A stretch of DNA of 64,000 nt from Candidatus Nomurabacteria bacterium RIFCSPHIGHO2_01_FULL_36_23 (GTDB lineage Bacteria > Patescibacteriota > Minisyncoccia > Phycocordibacterales > UBA9973), in NCBI GenBank assembly GCA_001786745.1, contig MFTF01000018.1, forward strand, positions 23,577 to 87,576, read 5' to 3'. Position 1 is the first letter of the stretch; the number at the start of each line of letters is the position of its first letter. The position numbers and the translations under genes were made by a program. A model generated the notes under the pieces. The model did no database searches. It saw only the letters and a program-made list of their open reading frames with translations, and was not told where the DNA came from. Of this stretch, positions 15,249 to 64,000 are shown piece by piece.

Positions 15249-15282
15249 TAGCATTAATAAGCGGTCGCACACTATTGCTAAA
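15249..15282. repeat. 34-nt palindrome-containing direct repeat, copy A (tagcattaataagcggtcgcacactattgctaaa); abuts the stop codon of the 15283-15846 gene
   Basis: 32/34 identical to 15857-15890. It contains the outer inverted repeat TAGCATTA/TAATGCTA. Confidence 0.85.
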
Positions 15283-15846
15283 CTAGCATAAGTTAAATTT
15301 CTTCATTAAATGCAGTTCATTGTCTATTTTATCAGCAAGAACGAATCGCACATACCTCCTGGCATTATAAAGCTCCAAAATAAATTCAATTTCATTATCG
15401 CAAGGATAAGGGAAAACCAATACAGATTTTTGAAGTTCAATGAGACCTATTTCTCGAAAATGAAAACGCAAAGAGTCACGTAACCTTTTTAATTTCTCAG
15501 GAATATCAAACATCACTATACGCCATTTCTTGTCCCATTTTGTCGGTTTTTTAATCCCCATTTTATCAATGTTAAATTTAAGAGCTTTTTGTTTTCCTTC
15601 TTTGTTTAAAATAAGAATAGTTGTTCCGTCTTTGTGATATTGTTCTTTAACTAAATGAGAAGTATATAAAGAATTGATGGCTCTCTGTAATGCTTGACGA
15701 TTTTCTTTCTCCCATTCTTTTGGTATTTGTTTCAAAATCCACAGCTGTTTCCTGGCTGATTTAGTTAGGCCAAGTGCAAGACCGGCAAGTAAAAGTAAAA
15801 GCACTTTCCTTTTTAGATTTCCTATTCTTGGCATGTTGTGTCCCAT
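15283..15846 (-). CDS. Hypothetical DNA-binding protein, family member 1: N-terminal winged-helix-like region plus C-terminal Cas2/VapD-like motif
   Basis: C-terminal motif WRIVMFDIPEKLKRLRDSLRFHFREIGLIELQKSVLVFPYP...RYVRFVLAD is shared with ORFs at 23442 and 28481. The gene is bracketed by 34-nt repeats. Confidence 0.6.
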   Translation of the reverse strand: MGHNMPRIGNLKRKVLLLLLAGLALGLTKSARKQLWILKQIPKEWEKENRQALQRAINSLYTSHLVKEQYHKDGTTILILNKEGKQKALKFNIDKMGIKKPTKWDKKWRIVMFDIPEKLKRLRDSLRFHFREIGLIELQKSVLVFPYPCDNEIEFILELYNARRYVRFVLADKIDNELHLMKKFNLC

Positions 15847-15856
15847 CTGCTTATTA

Positions 15857-15890
15857 TAGCATTAATAAGCGGTCGCATACTAATGCTAAA
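15857..15890. repeat. 34-nt palindrome-containing direct repeat, copy B (tagcattaataagcggtcgcatactaatgctaaa); 10 nt upstream of the start codon of the 15283-15846 gene
   Basis: Direct repeat of 15249-15282. Perfect 8-bp inverted termini with a 16-nt spacer. Confidence 0.85.
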
Positions 15891-15918: not shown

Positions 15919-16434
15919 TTGAATAACAATATGAAAATTCCCATTGTTGATGAACAAGATAATTTTTTATATTATAAAGATCCCAAAGAACGTGATCCGC
16001 GCAAGGAAATTACGCGGGGCTCTGTTCTATGGGTTGTGAATGAAAGAGGAAAAATATTGGTGGCTAAACGTTCAAAAAACAAAGAACACTTCCCGAATAT
16101 TTGGGGACCTTCAGTTGCTGGGTCCCTTGAAGAAAATGAATCTTATAGGGACAATCTCATCAAGGAGGCAAAAGAAGAGATAGGGGTTAATTTAGATACA
16201 ATTATATTAGGCTCTAAAATAAGAGAATCCGATGATCACGAATATTTTAGTCAATACTTTTTTACTAAAATTTCTTCAAATACAAAATTTACTCTTCAAG
16301 AATCAGAAGTTGATGAAGTACACTGGGTTTCCCTAAAACAATTAAAAAATTGGTATCGTAAAAATCCAGAAGAATTTCTGCCCACTTTTAGCGGAAGTTT
16401 AAAAATTATTGAAAATTATGAAAATCAGAGTTAA
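15919..16434 (+). CDS. Nudix hydrolase (IDI/MutT-like)
   Basis: Nudix box GSLEENESYRDNLIKEAKEEIGV. Confidence 0.75.
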   Translation: MNNNMKIPIVDEQDNFLYYKDPKERDPRKEITRGSVLWVVNERGKILVAKRSKNKEHFPNIWGPSVAGSLEENESYRDNLIKEAKEEIGVNLDTIILGSKIRESDDHEYFSQYFFTKISSNTKFTLQESEVDEVHWVSLKQLKNWYRKNPEEFLPTFSGSLKIIENYENQS

Positions 16435-23398: not shown

Positions 23399-23432
23399 AT
23401 AACAAACTATCGCGGCCGCGAAAATATGTTAT
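23399..23432. repeat. 34-nt palindrome-containing direct repeat (ataacaaactatcgcggccgcgaaaatatgttat); 9 nt upstream of the 23442 gene
   Basis: 28/34 identical to 23912-23945. It has inverted termini ATAACA/TGTTAT and a central perfect palindrome CGCGGCCGCG. Confidence 0.85.
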
Positions 23433-23441
23433 GATAAATCT

Positions 23442-23915
23442 ATGGAACTGACAACACTAGATCACTTAATAGCGTTTTTGCTTTCTGCTCGTTCAACGAG
23501 GATATATAGAAAAATATTATGGTCAAGAGTGTATATGAGACAAAAAAACTTAAGCACCGAAGCTTTTCGCCAGCATATTTACCGTTTACATAAAAAGGGA
23601 ATTATTGAAGCAAAAGGTAATAAAGTTTATATTTATCGAGAAAATCTTTTAAAGTTTTCAGTCAAAAGGAATTCAATAATGAAAAACATTTTTCCAGACA
23701 AAACAGAAAAAGTTCTCATATCTTTTGATATACCCGAGAAAAAGAAAAAAATGAGAGATTGGTTACGGAATCAAATAAAGTATTGGGATTTTGAAATGAT
23801 TCACGAAAGTTTATGGCTTGGGTATGGGCCACTACCCAAAGCGTTTAATGATAGATTAAAACATCTTGGTATTTATAAAAATGTTCGGGTATTTAGAGTT
23901 AGAAAAATAGCATAA
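23442..23915 (+). CDS. Hypothetical DNA-binding protein, family member 2 (winged-helix plus C-terminal Cas2/VapD-like motif)
   Basis: N-terminus FRQHIYRLHKKGIIEAKGNKVYIY is wHTH-like. The C-terminus VLISFDIPEKKKKMRDWLRNQIKYWDFEMIHESLWLGYGP...VRVFRV is paralogous to 15283 and 28481. Confidence 0.6.
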   Translation: MELTTLDHLIAFLLSARSTRIYRKILWSRVYMRQKNLSTEAFRQHIYRLHKKGIIEAKGNKVYIYRENLLKFSVKRNSIMKNIFPDKTEKVLISFDIPEKKKKMRDWLRNQIKYWDFEMIHESLWLGYGPLPKAFNDRLKHLGIYKNVRVFRVRKIA

Positions 23916-23945
23916 CAATATATCGCGGTTACGAAAAAATGTTAT
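23912..23945. repeat. 34-nt palindrome-containing direct repeat (ataacaatatatcgcggttacgaaaaaatgttat); overlaps the stop codon of the 23442 gene
   Basis: Direct repeat of 23399-23432. Confidence 0.85.
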
Positions 23946-23984
23946 ATATGGATTTATGAAGGAAAAGTGTAGTAAAATAAATAA

Positions 23985-26567: not shown

Positions 26568-27959
26568 ATGAAAGAAGAAAAATTAGATAAAAATAATTTA
26601 ATGGAAAAAATAGTTTCACTTTGCAAAAGGCGAGGCTTTGTTTTTCAAGGTTCGGAGATTTACGGAGGATTTGCCGGAACCTATGATTGGGGTTCGCTTG
26701 GTGTTGCCCTTAAAAGAAATATTACTGATACTTGGAATAAGGCGATGCAAGATCATCCAAATATGACTTTCCTTGACTCAAGTATTTTTACTTCTGGAAA
26801 AGTTTGGGAAGCGAGTGGGCATGTCTCAGGATTTTCAGATCCTCTCATTGTTTGTAATAAATGCAAAGAAAAATCTCGCGCTGATCATTTACTGGAAAAT
26901 ATTGGAATAAAAGCTGATGAAAAATTGAGCGAATTAGAAATCAACAAGATTTTTAACGAGAGTAGAAATAAAATAAAATGTCCAGGATGTGGTGCTAAAG
27001 ATTTTGGAAAAGTTCATGCTTCAAATTTACTTGCTACCTCTAATCTCGGAATGCTCGATGAAAATGAACAGCAAGTATATCTTCGTGGAGAAACTGCGCA
27101 AGGTATTTATATAAATTATAAAAATGTTTTAGATACTGGTTTTGTGTCTATTCCTTTTGGTATTGCTCAAATAGGGAAGGCTTTTCGTAATGAAATTAGT
27201 CCACGTCAGTTTTTATTTCGTAAGCGTGAATTTGAGCAGATGGAAATGCAGTATTTTTGTAATCCAAATGAAGCAATGGATAATTATGAAATTTGGAAAA
27301 AAGAAAGAATGGAATATTATCAAATGTTGGGAATAAATCCTAAAAAGCTTAGATTTAAACCACACGAAAACCTTGTTTTTTATGCGAAAGCCGCCTGTGA
27401 CATAGAATATGAATTTCCTTTCGGTTGGAATGAGCTTGAAGGAATACATTATCGTGGAGATTATGATCTAACTCAGCATCAAAAATTCTCTGGTGTAGAT
27501 ATGAAATTTTGTGACGAAGAAACAAAAGAAAAATATATTCCACATATAGTTGAAACATCAGTTGGGGTGGACCGAACAGTACTTATGGTTTTATGTGATG
27601 CTTATTGTGAGGACAAAATAGGAGAAAGTGAAAGAGTTGTTTTAAAATTTCCTCCCAAACTTGCTCCGATAGTATGCGCCGTATCTCCATTACTTAAAAA
27701 CAAGCCAGAACTTATTAGTAAAGCCAAAGATGTTTTTGATGTTCTCAAAGCCGAGTTCGGTCGTGTGGCGTGGGACGACAATGGCAATATCGGCAAACGT
27801 TATCGCCGTCAAGATGAAATCGGCACGCCATATTGCATTGTGGTTGATTTTGATACTCTTGCTGACAATACTGTGACCGTGCGAGATCGTGATACTGGAG
27901 AACAAGAGAGAATAAAAGTAGAAAATTTGAAAAGTTATATAAAAGAGAAAATACAATGA
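26568..27959 (+). CDS. glyQS: Glycyl-tRNA synthetase (alpha2 homodimeric type)
   Basis: Motifs RRGFVFQGSEIYGGFAGTYDWGSLG and class II motifs 2 and 3 are present, with a C-terminal anticodon-binding domain. Confidence 0.85.
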   Translation: MKEEKLDKNNLMEKIVSLCKRRGFVFQGSEIYGGFAGTYDWGSLGVALKRNITDTWNKAMQDHPNMTFLDSSIFTSGKVWEASGHVSGFSDPLIVCNKCKEKSRADHLLENIGIKADEKLSELEINKIFNESRNKIKCPGCGAKDFGKVHASNLLATSNLGMLDENEQQVYLRGETAQGIYINYKNVLDTGFVSIPFGIAQIGKAFRNEISPRQFLFRKREFEQMEMQYFCNPNEAMDNYEIWKKERMEYYQMLGINPKKLRFKPHENLVFYAKAACDIEYEFPFGWNELEGIHYRGDYDLTQHQKFSGVDMKFCDEETKEKYIPHIVETSVGVDRTVLMVLCDAYCEDKIGESERVVLKFPPKLAPIVCAVSPLLKNKPELISKAKDVFDVLKAEFGRVAWDDNGNIGKRYRRQDEIGTPYCIVVDFDTLADNTVTVRDRDTGEQERIKVENLKSYIKEKIQ

Positions 27960-28387
27960 AAAAAGGAGAAGATTACACTGGCATTGCTGTAGTATATTTA
28001 TATCATGATGGTAAGGGTAATGTACTACTTGCTAAAAGAAGTAATAACGCTAGAGATGAACAAGGTAGATGGGATATTAGTGGCGGTGGAGTAGAGTTTG
28101 GAGATACTATTGAAAATACTTTAAGAAAAGAAATTAAAGAAGAATACTGTACTGATGTTTCTGATTATCAATTTTTGGGGTATAGAGATGTGCATAGAGA
28201 ACATGATGGTGGAAAAACACACTGGATTGCCCTCGATTTTAAAGTTCTTATAAATAAAGAAAAAGCTAAAATTGGCGAACTACATAAATTTGATGCTTTG
28301 GAATGGTTTACCTTAAAAAATTTGCCCAGTCCAGTGCATTCTCAATTTCCAAATTTTTTAGAAAAATATAAAGATAAATTACCGTAA
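27956..28387 (+). CDS. Nudix hydrolase (MutT-like)
   Basis: Nudix box GGGVEFGDTIENTLRKEIKEEY. Confidence 0.75.
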   Translation: MKKGEDYTGIAVVYLYHDGKGNVLLAKRSNNARDEQGRWDISGGGVEFGDTIENTLRKEIKEEYCTDVSDYQFLGYRDVHREHDGGKTHWIALDFKVLINKEKAKIGELHKFDALEWFTLKNLPSPVHSQFPNFLEKYKDKLP

Positions 28388-28422
28388 AACCCCCTTGTTT
28401 TAACTTGAACAACTTTTTAACT

Positions 28423-28457
28423 ATTTACTTAACATACGCTATAGCGTGAGTCTAGTA
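28423..28457. repeat. 35-nt palindrome-containing direct repeat (atttacttaacatacgctatagcgtgagtctagta); 23 nt upstream of the 28481 gene
   Basis: 29/35 identical to 29104-29138. Core ATACGCTATAGCGT (13/14 palindrome). Confidence 0.8.
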
Positions 28458-28480
28458 AATTATGATAAGATAATTAAATT

Positions 28481-29070
28481 ATGGGGAATATAGAAAAAGA
28501 AGTAAAAAAAAGAGACAAAAGAGCAAGGTTGCAAAAGATTATTTTATCCACTATTTTTGCTCTTGGTGGCTTAAGTGTCGCTTTAATAGCTCCGAAAATG
28601 ACAAAAGTATTGGTAAAGTTTGAACCGGAATTTATGAAAGATAAGTATAGAAAATACTCTTTTAATAGATCACTGGTTAGACTCAAAGATGCTGGTTTTA
28701 TTGTTTTTGAAAAAACAGAAAGAGGGAATTTTGCCTGTCTGACCCCAAAAGGAAAAGAAAAGTTGCGCCAGCTAACAATTCATAATTTTAAAATAAAAAA
28801 ACCTAAAAATGGGATGGAAAATGGAGATTACTCATGTTTGATATTAAAGAAAAAAGAAAAAGCACTAGAGATAAAATTCGGCATAATTTATTTAAAATTG
28901 GATTTATAAGATTGCAAGATAGCGTCTGGGTATATCCTTATGATTGTGAAGATTTTATTAACTTAATGAAAGCTGATTTTAAAATAGGGAAAGACTTGTT
29001 GTATGTAGTAGCGGATAAAATTGAAAATGATAAATTCCTCGCCCAACATTTTAAATTATTTAATAGTTAA
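28481..29070 (+). pseudogene. Family member 3 of the wHTH plus Cas2/VapD-like family, disrupted by a -1 frameshift in an A5 run near 28805-28809 (track ORFs 28481..28909 and 28834..29070)
   Basis: Frame 1 upstream of 28834 reads KWDGKWRLLMFDIKEK, matching KWDKKWRIVMFDIPEK of member 1. The upstream frame carries the wHTH part. It could be a sequencing error in a homopolymer. Confidence 0.5.
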
Positions 29071-29103
29071 TTTTTTTATATTTTTCTTATTTACATATTT
29101 CAG

Positions 29104-29138
29104 ATTTACATAAGATACGCTATAGCGTAGTTATAGTA
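29104..29138. repeat. 35-nt palindrome-containing direct repeat (atttacataagatacgctatagcgtagttatagta); 33 nt downstream of the 28481-29070 gene
   Basis: Perfect 14-bp palindrome TACGCTATAGCGTA. Direct repeat of 28423-28457. Confidence 0.8.
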
Positions 29139-29180
29139 GATTTGAGTTCAATAAAAAACTTTAGTATAATACTTATTATG

Positions 29181-30446
29181 CGATTTTCAAAAAAGGTTTT
29201 AAAAAACGGATTGCGGGTTGTTATTGTGCCGATGAAGGATAATCCAACGGTCACGGTTTTGGTTTTAGTAGAAGCAGGATCAAAATATGAAACAAAAAAG
29301 GTAAATGGCATCTCCCATTTTCTAGAACATATGTGTTTTAAGGGGACAATAAAAAGACCCAAAGCCATTGATATTTCAAAAGAACTGGATGCCTTAGGGA
29401 GTCAATACAATGCCTTTACTGCGCAAGAATATACGGGATATTATGCGAAGTCCGATGCTTGGCATTTCAAGCAAATTTTTGATATTGTGTCGGATATATA
29501 TCTTAACTCTACTTTTCCTGAGGCAGAAATGCAGAGAGAAAAAGGCGTAATCACAGAGGAGATAAATATGTATAAAGATATGCCCCAGAGACACGTTCAG
29601 GATTTAATGACAAAGTTGCTTTATAAAAATCAGCCAGCTGGATGGAATGTTGCCGGTGAAAAGACAAATATTTTAAAAATGAAGCGCAATGATTTTGTGA
29701 AATATAAAAAGGAGCATTATGTTCCAGAAGCCACCGTATTAATAATAGCTGGACAGGTAACAGAGAAAGAAGTAATGAGCAAGATAAATAAAATTTTTGG
29801 CAAAATTCCACGAGGAAAGAAAGGTCATAAAATAAAAGTAAAAGAAAAACAAATAAAACCGCAAGTATTAATTAATTTTAAAAAAACAGACCAGACGCAT
29901 TTTGTTTTGAGTGTACGTACCTATGATTTATTTAATAAAAAAAATGCAATTCTTTCTGTTCTTGGCGGAGTGCTTGGTGGGGGAATGAGCTCACGCTTTT
30001 TTCAAAAACTTCGCGAAGAAATGGGTGTTGGTTATTATGTTCATGCGCACAATGATTCTTTTACTGACCATGGGTTTTTTCAAATTTCAGCCGGAGTGGA
30101 TAATAAAAGAATAAATGAAGTTGTCGGGGTTATTCTTGATGAATGTAATAAATTAAAAAAAGAAAAAATTAGCGCAGAAGAATTAAATAAAGTAAAAGAG
30201 TACTTGATAGGTAACATGAAACTATCTTTAGAATCGACTGACGATATAGCTAATTTTTATGGTGGGCAGGAACTTTTAAAACATGAACTGAAAAATGTGA
30301 AAGAAAAAGCAAAAGAAATCCGTAAAGTCACCGCCAGCCAAATCCAAAATCTGGCCAAAAATATTTTCCAAAACAAAAAGCTCAATTTAGCGCTCATTGG
30401 GCCTTTTAAAGAAAAATCAAAATTCTTAAAATTACTTAAATTTTAA
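29181..30446 (+). CDS. M16-family (insulinase/pitrilysin-like) zinc peptidase
   Basis: Inverted zincin motif HFLEHMCFKGT. The track ORF starts at 29142; the Met at 29181 (MRFSKKVLKNGLRVV) is the more likely start. Confidence 0.75.
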   Translation, partial: RFSKKVLKNGLRVVIVPMKDNPTVTVLVLVEAGSKYETKKVNGISHFLEHMCFKGTIKRPKAIDISKELDALGSQYNAFTAQEYTGYYAKSDAWHFKQIFDIVSDIYLNSTFPEAEMQREKGVITEEINMYKDMPQRHVQDLMTKLLYKNQPAGWNVAGEKTNILKMKRNDFVKYKKEHYVPEATVLIIAGQVTEKEVMSKINKIFGKIPRGKKGHKIKVKEKQIKPQVLINFKKTDQTHFVLSVRTYDLFNKKNAILSVLGGVLGGGMSSRFFQKLREEMGVGYYVHAHNDSFTDHGFFQISAGVDNKRINEVVGVILDECNKLKKEKISAEELNKVKEYLIGNMKLSLESTDDIANFYGGQELLKHELKNVKEKAKEIRKVTASQIQNLAKNIFQNKKLNLALIGPFKEKSKFLKLLKF

Positions 30447-37612: not shown

Positions 37613-37704
37613 TGGCGGAGCCGGCTGGATTCGAACCAGCGGAGGGGTTTAAAGCCCTCACCTCTTTAGCAAAGAGGCACCTTAGACCGCTCAGACACGG
37701 CTCC
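37613..37704 (-). tRNA. tRNA-Ser (anticodon GCU), type II, CCA encoded
   Basis: Minus-strand fold: acceptor GGAGCCG/CGGCTCC, D-loop GAGCGGTCTAA, anticodon stem CCTCT/AGAGG with loop TTGCTAA, a long variable arm, and T-arm GCTGG-TTCGAAT-CCAGC. Discriminator G plus CCA. Confidence 0.75.
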
Positions 37705-42744: not shown

Positions 42745-44489
42745 GTTTTTTAGAAGAATTAAGTAAAAAAGGCGTAATCAATGAGAGCCAAATAGGTGAA
42801 ATTAAAAATCGCGCAAAAGAGAAGTATAATGGAAATATTGACGAAGCCCTTATTGAATCTGGCGTTTCAGAAGAAAAAATTCTTGAAGTAAAAGGGGAGT
42901 ATTTGCGAATACCAGTGAAGAAAATAAATGTTCAAGATGTGTCTTTTGACGTTCTTCAATATATTTCAGAAGATTCGGCGACACATTATCATTTTGTTCC
43001 AATTGATCTTAAGGAAGGAGTATTGGAAGTGGGCATTACAGATCCAGAGAATACACAGGCGATGGATGCCTTACAGTTTATTTCAGCCAAGCTCGGTATT
43101 CCTTTTAAAATTTTTCTCATTTCGGAAAGTGACTATAAAAATATAATAGAAACCTATAAAGGCATATCGAGCCAGGTAGAAGAAGCGCTTAAAGAATTAA
43201 ACCAAGATGAAGCAATTGATGCAAAAAGTTTAAGCAAGGAAAATTTAGATAAAGAGATAAAAGATATAAAACCGGGAGAGGAAGCCAAAATAATAGAAGA
43301 TGCGCCAGTTATAAAAATTGTTGCTGTAATGCTGAGTAATGCCATAGAGGGGAATTCTTCTGATATCCATATTGAGCACGGAGGAGACAAGATAAAAGTA
43401 CGTTATCGCGTAGATGGCTCCCTTTACACTAGCATAGTATTACCCCTCAATGTTTATAGTGGAATAATTGCGCGTATAAAAATTCTTGCCAAATTGCGAT
43501 TAGACGAGAAAAGAAAACCCCAAGACGGGTCTTTTAGCGCAACTATTAATGGACGCAAGGTTGATTTTCGTGTTTCTACAATGCCGGCATATTATGGCGA
43601 GAAAATTGTTATGCGTATTTTAGATTCTGAAAAGGGAGTTAAGCCTCTGGATCAATTAGGTCTATCAGAAACAAATCTCAAAATGACCAGAGAGGCGCTT
43701 GCCCAGCCGTATGGAATTATTCTTATCACTGGTCCGACAGGGTCTGGAAAATCCACCACTCTATATTCAATGATGAATGAACTTGATCAGGAAAAAAACA
43801 ATATTGTATCCTTGGAAGATCCAGTAGAATATCATATGCCCAATATTAATCAATCTCAAGTAATGCCCGAAATCGGATATACTTTTGCGACGGGGCTACG
43901 TTCTATTTTTCGTCAAGATCCGGACATAATAATGGTTGGAGAAATTCGTGATAAAGAAACAGCCCAACTTGCTATTCAAGCGGCTTTGACTGGACACCTC
44001 GTTCTTTCAACTCTCCATACAAATAGCGCTATTGGCGCAATTCCTCGTCTTATTGATATGGGTATTGATCCGTATCTTATCGCGCCAACCCTAATTCTCT
44101 CTATAGCTCAACGTTTGGCTAAAACGATTTTTCCCGCTTCTAGAAAGCTTATATCAATGGATCCAAGTACTAAAATTCAAATTGAAGAGCAATTTAAAGA
44201 TTTGCCGGATGAATATAGAAAAAAAATTATTTTCAAAGATAAAATGTATGAAGTTGTTCCATCTCCCGAATGTCCTTCTGGCACAAAGGGTCGTATTGCT
44301 ATTTTTGAAATGTTTAAAGTAGATAAGGAAATGGAGGCTACAATACTAAAAAATCCCACCAATGCGGAAATTTACAAAATAGCCCGCAGAAAGGGAATGC
44401 TGATGATGAAAGAAGATGCCATATTGAAATCTCTACAAGGCATTATTCCTTTTAGGGAAGTATATAATTTTAGCAATGAAAATGAGTAA
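42741..44489 (+). CDS. pilB: Type IV pilus assembly ATPase PilB (full length with N-terminal GSPII_E_N domain)
   Basis: Walker A ITGPTGSGKSTTLYS, GspE motif VRYRVDGSLYT, and the N-terminal domain. Confidence 0.85.
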   Translation: MSFLEELSKKGVINESQIGEIKNRAKEKYNGNIDEALIESGVSEEKILEVKGEYLRIPVKKINVQDVSFDVLQYISEDSATHYHFVPIDLKEGVLEVGITDPENTQAMDALQFISAKLGIPFKIFLISESDYKNIIETYKGISSQVEEALKELNQDEAIDAKSLSKENLDKEIKDIKPGEEAKIIEDAPVIKIVAVMLSNAIEGNSSDIHIEHGGDKIKVRYRVDGSLYTSIVLPLNVYSGIIARIKILAKLRLDEKRKPQDGSFSATINGRKVDFRVSTMPAYYGEKIVMRILDSEKGVKPLDQLGLSETNLKMTREALAQPYGIILITGPTGSGKSTTLYSMMNELDQEKNNIVSLEDPVEYHMPNINQSQVMPEIGYTFATGLRSIFRQDPDIIMVGEIRDKETAQLAIQAALTGHLVLSTLHTNSAIGAIPRLIDMGIDPYLIAPTLILSIAQRLAKTIFPASRKLISMDPSTKIQIEEQFKDLPDEYRKKIIFKDKMYEVVPSPECPSGTKGRIAIFEMFKVDKEMEATILKNPTNAEIYKIARRKGMLMMKEDAILKSLQGIIPFREVYNFSNENE

Positions 44490-47719: not shown

Positions 47720-48205
47720 ATGAAAAAAATAAGTTTCAAAAAAGGTTTCACCTCGGCTTGCCGAAGGCGAGACGGATTTACATTAATTGAACTCTTGGTC
47801 GTGGTTGCCATCATCGGTATTTTAGCTTCCGTTGTGCTCGCTAGCCTAAACAGCGCTAGAACGAAAGGTGCTGACGCGGCCGTTAAATCTAGTATGGCTA
47901 ACTCTCGTGCTCAGGCAGAGCTATTCTATGATACTGGACAGACTTACGCTGGTGTTTGTGCTGTTGGCGCGACTACTATTAATGCAATCTTAGCTGGTGC
48001 TGTCAAGCAAAGTGCTGATGCAGACCAAGTTGTTGGTGATGATGCAGCTGCTACGGCAACCGTAGCTGTCTGTAATGACAGTGCTGCCGCTTGGGCATCC
48101 GAAATGCCACTCAAGGGTGGAAGTTTCTTCTGTGTGGATAGTAGTGGAAAAAGTCAGGTTAATACCGCTGTTGGCCTGGCGGCTGCTGCAGACTACGCTT
48201 GTTAA
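47720..48205 (+). CDS. Type IV major pilin (PilA-like), paralog 1
   Basis: Motif GFTLIELLVVVAIIGILASVVLASLNSAR and a Cys-containing C-terminal D-region. Confidence 0.8.
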   Translation: MKKISFKKGFTSACRRRDGFTLIELLVVVAIIGILASVVLASLNSARTKGADAAVKSSMANSRAQAELFYDTGQTYAGVCAVGATTINAILAGAVKQSADADQVVGDDAAATATVAVCNDSAAAWASEMPLKGGSFFCVDSSGKSQVNTAVGLAAAADYAC

Positions 48206-48338
48206 TAACTATTAACATATTTAATTGTTGCAATAAAAAACAAAAACTACCCTTTTGATTTATCCACAGGGTGTTTTTTGTTTTTATGAATGTGCTATAA
48301 TATAAAAGTTCATTATAAATTTTAACTTTTTTATAAAT

Positions 48339-48851
48339 ATGTTAAAAAATTCTAAAGGTTTGGTCTTGGGGGATTCGAAAGGTTTTACATTAATTGAGCT
48401 CTTGGTCGTGGTTGCTATCATCGGTATTTTGGCGTCGGTTGTACTGGCTAGTTTAAACAGCGCCAGAAACAAAGCTGTTGATGTCGCTATAAAGTCCGCA
48501 ATGGCTAACTCTCGCGCGCAAGCAGAGCTATATTACTTTCCAGATGAAACATATAATAATCTCTGCACCGCTGTCGGTGGTGTTGGCCCTATGGTTTTAA
48601 ATGCTGCGCAGAAATTAAATATAGCCGCAGTTGTGGGTGATAATACTCAGCCATTTATTTATGATGATACAGGTACTCTTGCTGGTGCTTCCGTTTGTCA
48701 CGACAGTGATACTGCTTGGGCAGCTGTTACATCCTTAAAGAATCCTACGCTTCCCCCTGGCGGTCCTTTTGCCGGCGGATGGTGTGTTGATTCTACTGGG
48801 GCCTCTAAGGAAGCAACTGCTCTTCTTTCTGGCGAATATGTTTGTCCGTAA
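48339..48851 (+). CDS. Type IV major pilin, paralog 2
   Basis: Motif KGFTLIELLVVVAIIGILASVVLASLNSAR and a variable C-terminus with Cys residues. Confidence 0.8.
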   Translation: MLKNSKGLVLGDSKGFTLIELLVVVAIIGILASVVLASLNSARNKAVDVAIKSAMANSRAQAELYYFPDETYNNLCTAVGGVGPMVLNAAQKLNIAAVVGDNTQPFIYDDTGTLAGASVCHDSDTAWAAVTSLKNPTLPPGGPFAGGWCVDSTGASKEATALLSGEYVCP

Positions 48852-48889
48852 TAAAAATTAATTTTTATTAATTTTAATATTGTAAAAAA

Positions 48890-49438
48890 ATGAATTTCAC
48901 GGAAAATTTTAAGAAAGGTTCCGCCTCGGCTTGCCGAAGGCGAGACGGGTTTACATTAATTGAACTCTTGGTCGTAGTTGCCATCATTGGCATTTTAGCT
49001 TCAGTGGTTTTGGCTTCGCTTAATTCAGCCCGAGGCAAGGGCGCTGATGCTACTATAAAATCAAACCTAGTCAATATGCGTCCGCAAGCGGAGATTCTTT
49101 ATGATTCATGGGGAAATTATGCTGTGGACGCCACGCCTACATACTTTGCTCTTGGTCAATGTACAAATGTTGGTACTGGAGCGGATACCCTTTTCTCTAA
49201 TCCTACCATCTGGAGTCAGATAACATCTGCTTATAATGCTGGTGCCGGAATTGCATCTACTAGGTGTTATTCATCATCTGGAGCTTATGCAGTTGCAGTA
49301 CAGCTTAAAACTAGTGATGGGAACACAGCTCCATTACCAGATTCTTGGTGTGTAGATAGCACAGGAGCAAGTAAGGCATATACCTGGGCTGCAGCTGAGA
49401 CAATCGCTACTTCCATCAACGCTACTTTTTGCCGATAG
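48890..49438 (+). CDS. Type IV major pilin, paralog 3
   Basis: Motif DGFTLIELLVVVAIIGILASVVLASLNSAR. Its leader is shared with paralog 1. Confidence 0.8.
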   Translation: MNFTENFKKGSASACRRRDGFTLIELLVVVAIIGILASVVLASLNSARGKGADATIKSNLVNMRPQAEILYDSWGNYAVDATPTYFALGQCTNVGTGADTLFSNPTIWSQITSAYNAGAGIASTRCYSSSGAYAVAVQLKTSDGNTAPLPDSWCVDSTGASKAYTWAAAETIATSINATFCR

Positions 49439-54890: not shown

Positions 54891-54978
54891 TGGCGGAGGG
54901 TAGGAGATTCGGACTCCTGATGGATTTCTCCATACACGCTTTCCAAGCGTGCGCACTAGACCTCTATGCGAACCCTCC
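54891..54978 (-). tRNA. tRNA-Ser (anticodon GGA), type II, CCA encoded; T-loop has C at position 55
   Basis: Minus-strand fold: acceptor GGAGGGT/ACCCTCC, D-stem GCA/TGC with loop TAGAGGTCTAG, anticodon stem CACGC/GCGTG with loop TTGGAAA, variable arm ATGGA-GAAA-TCCAT, T-arm AGGAG-TCCGAAT-CTCCT, then G-CCA. Confidence 0.65.

Positions 54979-62254: not shown

Positions 62255-64000
<1,746 letters not shown>

Follow-up and report, generated by a model that had tools for sequence, protein, structure and literature searches.

A PaaX-like regulator gene with a natural one-nucleotide deletion allele, bracketed by paired palindromes that may serve as its operators, in a Parcubacteria-type genome

The locus considered here lies in a 64,000-nucleotide (nt) stretch of contig MFTF01000018.1 from Candidatus Nomurabacteria bacterium RIFCSPHIGHO2_01_FULL_36_23 (this whole stretch is called the window below; it is AT-rich, with 35% GC, and densely coding). 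At positions 28423-29142 of the window, a gene whose winged helix-turn-helix (wHTH) half and Cas2-like half are read in different frames is bracketed by two palindromic repeats. Two questions are raised by this arrangement: is the frameshift real, and what are the repeats for? An earlier note, made from the letters of this DNA, had described the unit as a cassette and had left the frameshift as a sign of decay, a homopolymer sequencing error or phase-variable expression. Our analysis indicates with high confidence that the unit holds one gene carrying a real allele. The palindromes appear slightly more likely to be autoregulatory operators than to be anything else, and the explanation as a whole, namely one PaaX-like gene, a real deletion allele and paired autoregulatory operators, is the account that we favour as rather probable.

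We first describe the gene itself. Its 5' part (28481-28909, + strand) is an open reading frame (ORF) of 142 amino acids (aa), composed of native residues 1-109, which form an N-terminal helix and the winged helix-turn-helix and carry the wHTH peptide quoted earlier, followed by a 33-aa out-of-frame tail that contains NGMENGDYSCLILK. The 3' part (28807-29070, + strand), encoding the Cas2-like PaaX_M domain, is read in the +2 frame, which is open from 28807 (translation KWDGKWRLLMFDI...KLFNS, also quoted as KWDGKWRLLMFDIKEK...KLFNS) to the stop codon at 29068-29070. Because a TAA occupies 28804-28806 in the +2 frame, the shift is confined to the run of five A residues (A5) at 28805-28809 or to the position just after it. 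The same TAA led us to reject a rescue by slippage in the upstream A7 run (28795-28801), for which +2 is the target frame. Adding one A to the A5 run yields a 196-aa protein with a winged-helix domain, a PaaX_M (Cas2-like) domain and the junction peptide KIKKPKKWDGKWR. Compared with the six-A (A6) allele, in which CCT AAA AAA TGG encodes P K K W, the deleted base belongs to two adjacent Lys codons where the domains meet. A 78-aa ORF (28834-29070, + strand) can also be read from an internal ATG with GGAG 7 nt upstream; speculatively, most of the Cas2-like domain might be translated on its own from this start.

The repaired protein matched the Pfam model PF20803 (PaaX_M) with an E-value of 3.7e-20 and 72.2 bits (cutoff 24), which shows that the two halves are parts of one gene. 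In these respects the earlier note was right: it had joined the two halves, assigned them to these two frames and mapped the switch to the A5 run. The two paralogues in the window matched the same model with E-values of 7.2e-19 and 2.5e-10. The Pfam Cas2 match remained below its cutoff (19.8 against 23.8 bits), the NCBIfam Cas2 model TIGR01573 was just over its own (28.3 against 24.5 bits), and the NCBIfam PaaX equivalog TIGR02277 gave 49.9 bits against a cutoff of 264.55, with an alignment spanning residues 63-160. No match was found to PF07848, the N-terminal PaaX domain, at E<=1, or to PF08223 (PaaX_C), and the protein stops about 15 residues past the Cas2-like fold, at 196 aa. Since a family-profile search of the PDB sequences gave marginal matches only (Cas2 3EXC, E=0.066; Mycobacterium tuberculosis Rv0674, 3KFW, E=0.78), a fold search was needed. 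In an AlphaFold2 model built from 73 sequences (mean pLDDT 72), the C-terminal domain has the order beta-alpha-beta-beta-alpha-beta at a pLDDT of 85-92. The best Foldseek match of the model in the PDB was Escherichia coli PaaX (8A39; 182 aligned columns, E=1.2e-5), followed by 3KFW and then by many Cas2 structures (target TM-scores 0.45-0.65). An invariant residue is D121, the Asp conserved in the FDI motif. The protein has 2336 homologues; the 120 listed ones are 174-204 aa long, nearly all of them 190-204.

The Pfam and NCBIfam scores, the AlphaFold2 model and the Foldseek ranking together identify the protein as a short PaaX-like protein, composed of a predicted wHTH and a Cas2-like domain, without the C-terminal domain of PaaX. 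As such, it is not an orthologue of PaaX, nor is it a CRISPR Cas2. PaaX of E. coli (8A39, TIGR02277, PF07848/PF20803/PF08223) shares the Cas2-like central domain and probably the N-terminal winged helix with it, but is about 305-316 aa long against 196 aa here and has the C-terminal domain that this protein lacks; moreover, no paa genes are found near the unit, either in the window or at the orthologous loci. Cas2 (TIGR01573, PF09827) shares the ferredoxin-like fold and the FD(I/V) and LQxSVW motifs with the C-terminal domain. However, Cas2 is a stand-alone protein of about 90-110 aa encoded next to cas1 and a CRISPR array, whereas here the domain is fused to a wHTH and the neighbouring genes encode GlyRS, a Nudix hydrolase and an M16 peptidase. 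The repeat survey of the window revealed no CRISPR-like repeat family; no search for cas1 covered the whole window. In public databases, members of the family are named 'CRISPR-associated endonuclease Cas2', 'phenylacetic acid degradation operon negative regulatory protein', 'PadR family regulator' or 'hypothetical', and for several source genomes the label is 'Candidatus Saccharibacteria', although their relatives belong to the Nomurabacteria or Paceibacteria (e.g. loci L004, L006 and L010). The public names and the taxonomy of family members therefore look unreliable, and the 'Cas2' annotations of the family are most likely over-calls.

Is the missing A a property of the organism or of the sequencing? 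Homopolymers are a classic place for sequencing error, and intact contigs with an identical context exist, so an error in an otherwise intact gene has to be considered. A5 and A6 were called from assembled contigs. The exact 142-aa truncated product is listed in 32 index blocks and encoded by no fewer than 24 contigs, and 10 of the 10 loci examined carry A5. These come from 10 different sample assemblies, with contigs of up to 204 kb, the sources including ERZ272547xx assemblies, ERZ4903125, ERZ4903070, two ANAN16 samples, JGI 3300002502 and SRR1658344 (PRJNA268031); they represent different runs, samples and pipelines (ENA k141 and k127, ANAN16 scaffolds, JGI 3300002502). The A5 contigs differ from the window at 0-25 positions of the flanking genes (0-1%), indicating that A5 is present on several strain backgrounds. 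No other obviously broken gene appeared on a coarse ORF map of the window. These data effectively reject the sequencing or assembly error proposed earlier, to which we give only a very remote chance.

The intact allele was found as well. The repaired protein is 100% identical over its full length to a database protein (P0001), which is encoded with A6 on four short contigs from at least three sample assemblies. Three of these contigs (L001-L003) were retrieved, each from a separate assembly. Over 28399-29230 they differ from the window by A6 instead of A5, and two of them also by A instead of G at 29139; for L003, the indel is the sole difference over 833 nt. Among 13 haplotypes, the 720-nt unit is variable only at the A5/A6 indel and at 29139, and all four combinations of A5 or A6 with G or A at 29139 occur. 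The flanks are mosaic, with a block of 42 single-nucleotide polymorphisms (SNPs) in the GlyRS gene of L001 and a block of 15-16 SNPs in the Nudix gene of L090/L091, and A5 is present on at least two Nudix-gene haplotypes. The orthologue comparison called for in the earlier note gives the direction of the change: the closest orthologue (L115, 88% identical) reads CCT AAA AAA TGG, and more distant orthologues have interrupted codons at the position of the A run, so A6 is ancestral and A5 a recent deletion. All 80 related genome loci are intact here, with ORFs of 186-221 aa. A decaying copy within a turning-over family, another of the earlier suggestions, is weakly supported: the gene has no other lesion, the orthologues are syntenic and intact, and the paralogues are old. 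Taken together, A5 is a genuine and recent natural null or split allele, neither an error nor an old pseudogene, which coexists with the intact A6 allele and is the common allele among the public assemblies sampled.

A recent indel in a homopolymer also raises the question of whether the tract works as a phase-variation (contingency) switch, in which slipped-strand mispairing would reversibly turn the gene OFF (A5) or ON (A6). Several observations fit such a switch. Both lengths occur in otherwise identical sequence (L003 and the window), the four A5/A6 by 29139 combinations could come from recurrent indels, A5 lies on more than one Nudix-gene haplotype, and the A6 run is particular to this lineage. 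As in contingency genes, a homopolymer in the coding region is polymorphic in length, shifts the frame and exists in both states in the population. However, homopolymeric contingency tracts typically have at least about 7-8 nt, and 5-6 nt is well short of this; the product is a cytoplasmic regulator, not a surface or restriction-modification function; just two lengths were seen; and none of the 80 related loci is frameshifted at this site. In addition, recurrent slippage is not required for the four combinations, because recombination in the mosaic flanks suffices to produce them. Thus, of the earlier suggestion of phase-variable expression, the existence of both tract lengths in nature stands, while the shortness of the run and an equally good explanation by recombination speak against the switch itself, which we regard as distinctly unlikely.

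Could the A5 allele nevertheless yield the full-length protein through programmed -1 ribosomal frameshifting or transcriptional slippage? The required shift is indeed -1, at a site rich in A and followed downstream by a GGAG motif. However, the site CCT AAA AAT, i.e. T AAA AAT, lacks the X XXY YYZ pattern of a slippery heptamer, five A residues are too few for RNA polymerase to slip efficiently, and neither the A6 allele nor any orthologue needs recoding. Programmed frameshifting at the A5 site is unlikely, and for recoding of either kind we see next to no chance. As read, the A5 allele would instead give a wHTH-only protein with the 33-aa out-of-frame tail.

We turn to the second question, the repeats. 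The earlier claim that repeats bracket the gene was correct: 28423-28457 and 29104-29138 are identical at 29 of 35 positions, and the extended pair 28423-28461 and 29104-29142 (family D15 of the repeat survey) at 32 of 39 (82% identity). Of the 'perfect 14-bp palindrome' ascribed to them, only the downstream copy has one, the core TACGCTATAGCGTA at 29116-29129; the upstream core at 28435 is TACGCTATAGCGTG, which matches TACGCTATAGCGTA at 13 of 14 positions and contains a perfect 12-bp palindrome. With up to two mismatches, the core motif occurs three times in the window against 0.10 expected by chance, the third match (at 43399) being an unrelated site with two mismatches. Each core is the centre of a longer palindrome. 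The upstream one, a putative operator, spans 38 bp (28423-28460) with outer boxes ATTTAC/GTAAAT around TACGCTATAGCGTG, and its dyad lies about 40 nt 5' of the start codon. The downstream one (29104-29141), with the perfect core, lies 34 nt past the stop codon. On its right side, the outer box reads GTAGAT in the window and GTAAAT in other haplotypes, owing to the G/A polymorphism at 29139; an A at this position, as carried by L001, L002 and L091, makes the box symmetric. The two polymorphisms of the unit thus hit the regulator gene and one of its putative sites.

Palindromes of this class number only six in the window, and all of them flank the three paralogous genes. Unit 1 (15249-15890, - strand) contains an intact 187-aa gene (15283-15846, - strand) that is 32% identical to the present one, between 34-nt repeats at 15249-15282 and 15857-15890 (94% identical; TAGCATTA..GCGGTCGC..TAATGCTA). 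Unit 2 (23399-23946, + strand) contains a 157-aa gene (23442-23915, + strand; 26% identical to the present one) with ATAACA..TCGCGGCCGCGA..TGTTAT on one side (23399-23432) and a copy that has diverged on the other (23915-23946). The gene under study is therefore the third paralogue, as the earlier note had it, each paralogue having a repeat pair of its own.

The bracketing extends to the whole family. We used 80 genome loci with genes for relatives, often several to one genome, which come without exception from metagenome-assembled genomes of the Parcubacteria/Paceibacteria type, and matched the 130 nt upstream of each start codon against the 130 nt downstream of the stop codon. In 42 of 74 loci, the best ungapped match lay above the 99th percentile of a control made of mismatched pairs; when either orientation was allowed, 60 of 76 loci, including the three units of the window, had a repeat pair. 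Nearly every locus of about 5.5 kb contains two copies only, one 5' of the start and one 3' of the stop. The results showed that the repeat is a locus-specific dyad of about 36-40 bp. Its central 8-mer is usually GCTATAGC (64 of 129) and otherwise GCGACCGC, ACGACCGT or similar; dyad positions 5-9 are less constrained; and the outer boxes at positions 10-17 vary among loci and agree in all four half-sites of a locus. Arm symmetry and identity between the upstream and downstream copies follow one profile, being high in the core, dipping at positions 5-9, high again at 10-17 and at background past position 18. A total of 100 palindromes of this class was counted in 393 kb, and 83 of them are no more than 130 nt away from an end of a family gene; shuffled sequence gave none. 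The orientation of the copies varies, a direct match being better at 21 loci, an inverted one at 14 and both being equal at 25, with perfect inverted pairs in L016, L024 and L077 and a perfect direct pair in L032; a symmetric binding site would be expected to show such arbitrary orientation. The paired gene-specific palindromes around the gene are thus a general and apparently undescribed property of a large family. Searches of the literature that paired PaaX with Cas2-like, Patescibacteria, Parcubacteria or CPR retrieved no paper linking PaaX to these groups and none on the present family in bacteria of the Candidate Phyla Radiation, and a search on PaaX structure and operators returned nothing useful.

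Some palindromes of related genes have other forms. In a more distant branch of the family (L098 8526-9059, L109 4199-4762 and L116 3744-4271; 175-187 aa, about 29-35% identical), a palindrome of the type ATTTACTAT..ATGCTATAGCAT..ATAGTAAAT lies directly 3' of the stop codon, facing a convergent gene for a CxxC-rich protein in L109 and L116; no upstream copy was found at these three loci at >=68% identity. L023 has a perfect 108-nt palindrome at about 1515-1625 that begins at the stop codon of the family gene, as well as two identical GC-rich hairpins with A/T-tract flanks (AAAAAACAGGCAAGCCCGCGGGCTTGCCTGTTTTTT), one at 761-796, 175 nt before the gene, and the other at 2359-2394, 847 nt beyond it.

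The position of the upstream copy relative to the promoter is informative. In 23 of 66 loci, the upstream dyad is exactly 18 nt before the start codon, and a second mode lies at 36-40 nt, the class to which the unit in the window belongs (about 40 nt). Among the 27 loci of the 18-20 nt class, a TATAAT-like hexamer is present in 26 and stands exactly 7 nt before the start in 22; in the 36-40 nt class, 16 of 17 loci have a -10-like hexamer 4-9 nt before the start. In the window, the corresponding hexamer is GATAAT (28469-28474, + strand), 7 nt before the ATG, pointing to a promoter of the leaderless type. This spacing between -10 element and start implies leaderless transcripts, and the geometry would place the upstream site over the promoter itself in the 18-nt class or over its -35 region in the 36-40 nt class.

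The downstream copy, in contrast, is 15-111 nt past the stop codon without a fixed geometry. Because the downstream neighbour is convergent in 34 of 69 loci, and because the distance from this copy to the start of a co-directional next gene (12-206 nt) is not fixed either, the copy appears tied to the 3' end of the regulator gene and not to the promoter of the neighbour. As a general explanation, an operator or promoter of the next gene was therefore rejected. In the window, the downstream palindrome does abut the -35 box of a promoter-like sequence for the M16 peptidase gene (TTGAGT-17-TATAAT, 29142-29170, + strand; ATG at 29179).

On these grounds, we propose the following model. The unit at 28423-29142 may be one transcription unit of an uncultured groundwater bacterium of the Parcubacteria/Paceibacteria type, encoding a 196-aa regulator that would bind its own palindrome of about 38 bp as a symmetric oligomer. 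Since the upstream copy overlaps or abuts the leaderless-type promoter, binding there would result in autoregulation. The downstream copy could be a second operator that loops with the first, or a roadblock or insulator at the 3' end of the gene; this putative role is the weakest step of the model. In the A5 allele, regulation would probably be lost or altered, because the DNA-binding half is parted from the Cas2-like half. The operator reading fits the symmetry of the sites, their core-plus-box profile, their arbitrary orientation, the weak hairpins in the window and the promoter geometry. PaaX itself binds palindromic operators at promoters and is autoregulated. The sites described here differ from that system in being 36-40 bp long, in having a core and outer boxes, and in being paired around the gene; to our knowledge, no such gene-bracketing arrangement of sites has been reported for PaaX. 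A likeness in layout is offered by lambdoid immunity regions, in which a repressor gene is bracketed by its own palindromic operators (OL and OR), with specificities varying between related regions, and in which the OL and OR operator sets can loop together. The present unit differs from them by the absence of a phage context, by a single 38-bp site per side instead of three 17-bp sites, and by an unrelated protein family.

Several points weigh against the operator model. Recognition of the palindrome by the protein is suggested by their co-occurrence alone. The N-terminal domain, which should provide DNA binding in this model, was modelled as helix, helix, beta-hairpin wing and helix at low confidence (pLDDT 46-74). 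Across 70 loci, the residues of the predicted recognition helix did not clearly correlate with the type of core (with TATA, GACC or GATC at the centre), so there is no direct support for co-evolution at the core. At many other loci, the palindromes are perfect over 36-42 nt, which is longer than a simple dimer site needs. The convergent neighbours and unfixed distances of the downstream copy, described above, belong here as well. Furthermore, a scan of metagenome contigs for ATTTAC-N9-GCTATAGC-N9-GTARAT returned 23 stretches, none from the organism of the window, of which 7 adjoin family genes and 16 are lone sites. The lone palindromes often lie between convergent genes (L101, L103, L104 and L111-L113), and a third copy of the locus's own palindrome in L038 (500-535) lies 2 kb upstream of the regulator gene and about 90 nt past the stop codon of a gene for a TrmB-like HTH protein. 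The preference of such extra sites for the 3' ends of genes is not predicted by a simple promoter-operator model, and the placement of the downstream and lone palindromes would also fit the role of an insulator or a terminator. One lone position recurs, just 3' of a gene for a pterin-4a-carbinolamine-dehydratase-like protein (L103, L105, L111 and L112, with three palindrome variants); on these contigs, a small TrpR/YerC-like gene is close by, and L105 has a metK-like gene.

The same placement leads to a different reading, in which the palindromes act as hairpins or cruciforms, either as bidirectional terminators or insulators, protein-independent or protein-assisted, or as substrates of the Cas2-like domain in the manner of REP/RAYT systems. 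The length of the perfect palindromes would suit it, as would arms that differ among loci yet stay complementary and the frequent position of downstream and lone copies at gene 3' ends and between convergent genes. The Cas2 fold is common to RNA- and DNA-cleaving proteins, and the invariant Asp of the FDI motif would be in keeping with such an activity. Against this, arm pairing falls to 0.64-0.78 at positions 5-9, exactly where the identity between copies also dips. The hairpins predicted for the palindromes of the window are weak, at -3 to -6.7 kcal/mol, and for two of the six copies folding is no better than that of shuffled sequence. No T-tract follows the palindromes of the unit in the sequence, and an Rfam search over 28200-29300 gave zero matches. 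The upstream copy precedes the putative leaderless start and would hence lie outside its own mRNA. Dispersal is low as well, with most class palindromes located at family genes, unlike REP sequences. With REP/RAYT, the unit shares a gene flanked by two cognate imperfect palindromes and further intergenic copies that often lie between convergent genes; it differs in having no HUH/Tyr transposase domain, in the fixed promoter distance of the upstream copy and in a very low copy number, with six flanking copies in the window against tens to hundreds of dispersed REP copies. We consider the hairpin reading unlikely. Still more speculative is a combined picture, which we hold to be improbable: the wHTH-Cas2-like proteins and their private palindromes of about 38 bp would form an undescribed Parcubacteria system in which each regulator brackets its own leaderless gene with two copies of a co-evolving site and, by looping or roadblocking, insulates the unit and gates transcription at gene ends, convergent junctions at other places in the genome among them, perhaps with a nucleic-acid activity of the Cas2-like domain and with A5/A6 as a population ON/OFF switch for one such unit.

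Finally, the word 'cassette' in the earlier note implied mobility. If the repeats were the ends or recombination sites of a mobile cassette (integron-like, transposon-like or a palindromic target duplication), the frameshift would be a sign of its decay. The repeats do bracket the gene regardless of the orientation of the neighbours, small genomes contain several paralogues, and the lone palindromes could be relics of deletion between repeats. The Nudix gene adds to this. It lies upstream of the unit in the window (27956-28387), L009 and L015, downstream of it in L006, L007, L011, L013, L017 and L031, and is absent in L004, L005 and L014; in L015, a full copy upstream is accompanied by a 51-aa Nudix fragment downstream. 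This placement points to a local history of duplication and loss, or of rearrangement, in the surroundings of the palindromes. However, the neighbours of the unit (GlyRS, Nudix hydrolase, M16 peptidase and permease genes, with no paa or cas genes adjoining) form a conserved context, in that the order DUF protein-GlyRS-[unit]-M16 peptidase-permease is kept among orthologues down to 58% protein identity. The paralogues within a genome are not recent copies, being 47-68% identical in other genomes and 23-32% in the window. Searches of phage, plasmid and IMG/VR sequences revealed no relatives of the protein, and Pfam and NCBIfam searches found no recombinase, transposase or HUH/Tyr domain, only the wHTH and PaaX_M domains. 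Inverted or undecidable repeat pairs are as frequent as direct ones, which does not fit target-site duplications or excision sites, and the promoter geometry of the upstream copy is fixed. From the synteny, the age of the paralogues, the lack of phage, plasmid or viral relatives and the lack of a recombinase or transposase domain, we do not take the unit for a mobile cassette; its repeats behave like binding sites, and mobility seems highly unlikely.

Other features of the window were recorded alongside. Paralogue 1 (15283-15846) adjoins an unrelated Nudix gene at 15919-16434. At 47731-49124, three tandem 221-nt copies (67-71% identical, about 570-610 nt apart) match three adjacent small paralogous ORFs of 161, 170 and 182 aa. 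About 600 nt at 62731-63340 contain no ORF of >=50 aa and no tRNA, and the only tRNAs of the window are tRNA-Ser at 37613-37704 and 54891-54978.

Overall, the frameshift itself is an ordinary event, and it provides a clean example of how a comparison across assemblies separates a real variant from a homopolymer error. The A5 allele also draws attention to a regulator whose loss a groundwater population of Parcubacteria tolerates or even favours. Many database annotations of 'Cas2' and 'PaaX' in these genomes are misleading. Very few regulators can be recognised in bacteria of the Candidate Phyla Radiation, and we know of none there that has been paired with its operator by experiment. The family described here, with more than 2300 homologues and several members per genome, supplies a candidate binding site for each member, which makes their regulation testable in vitro.

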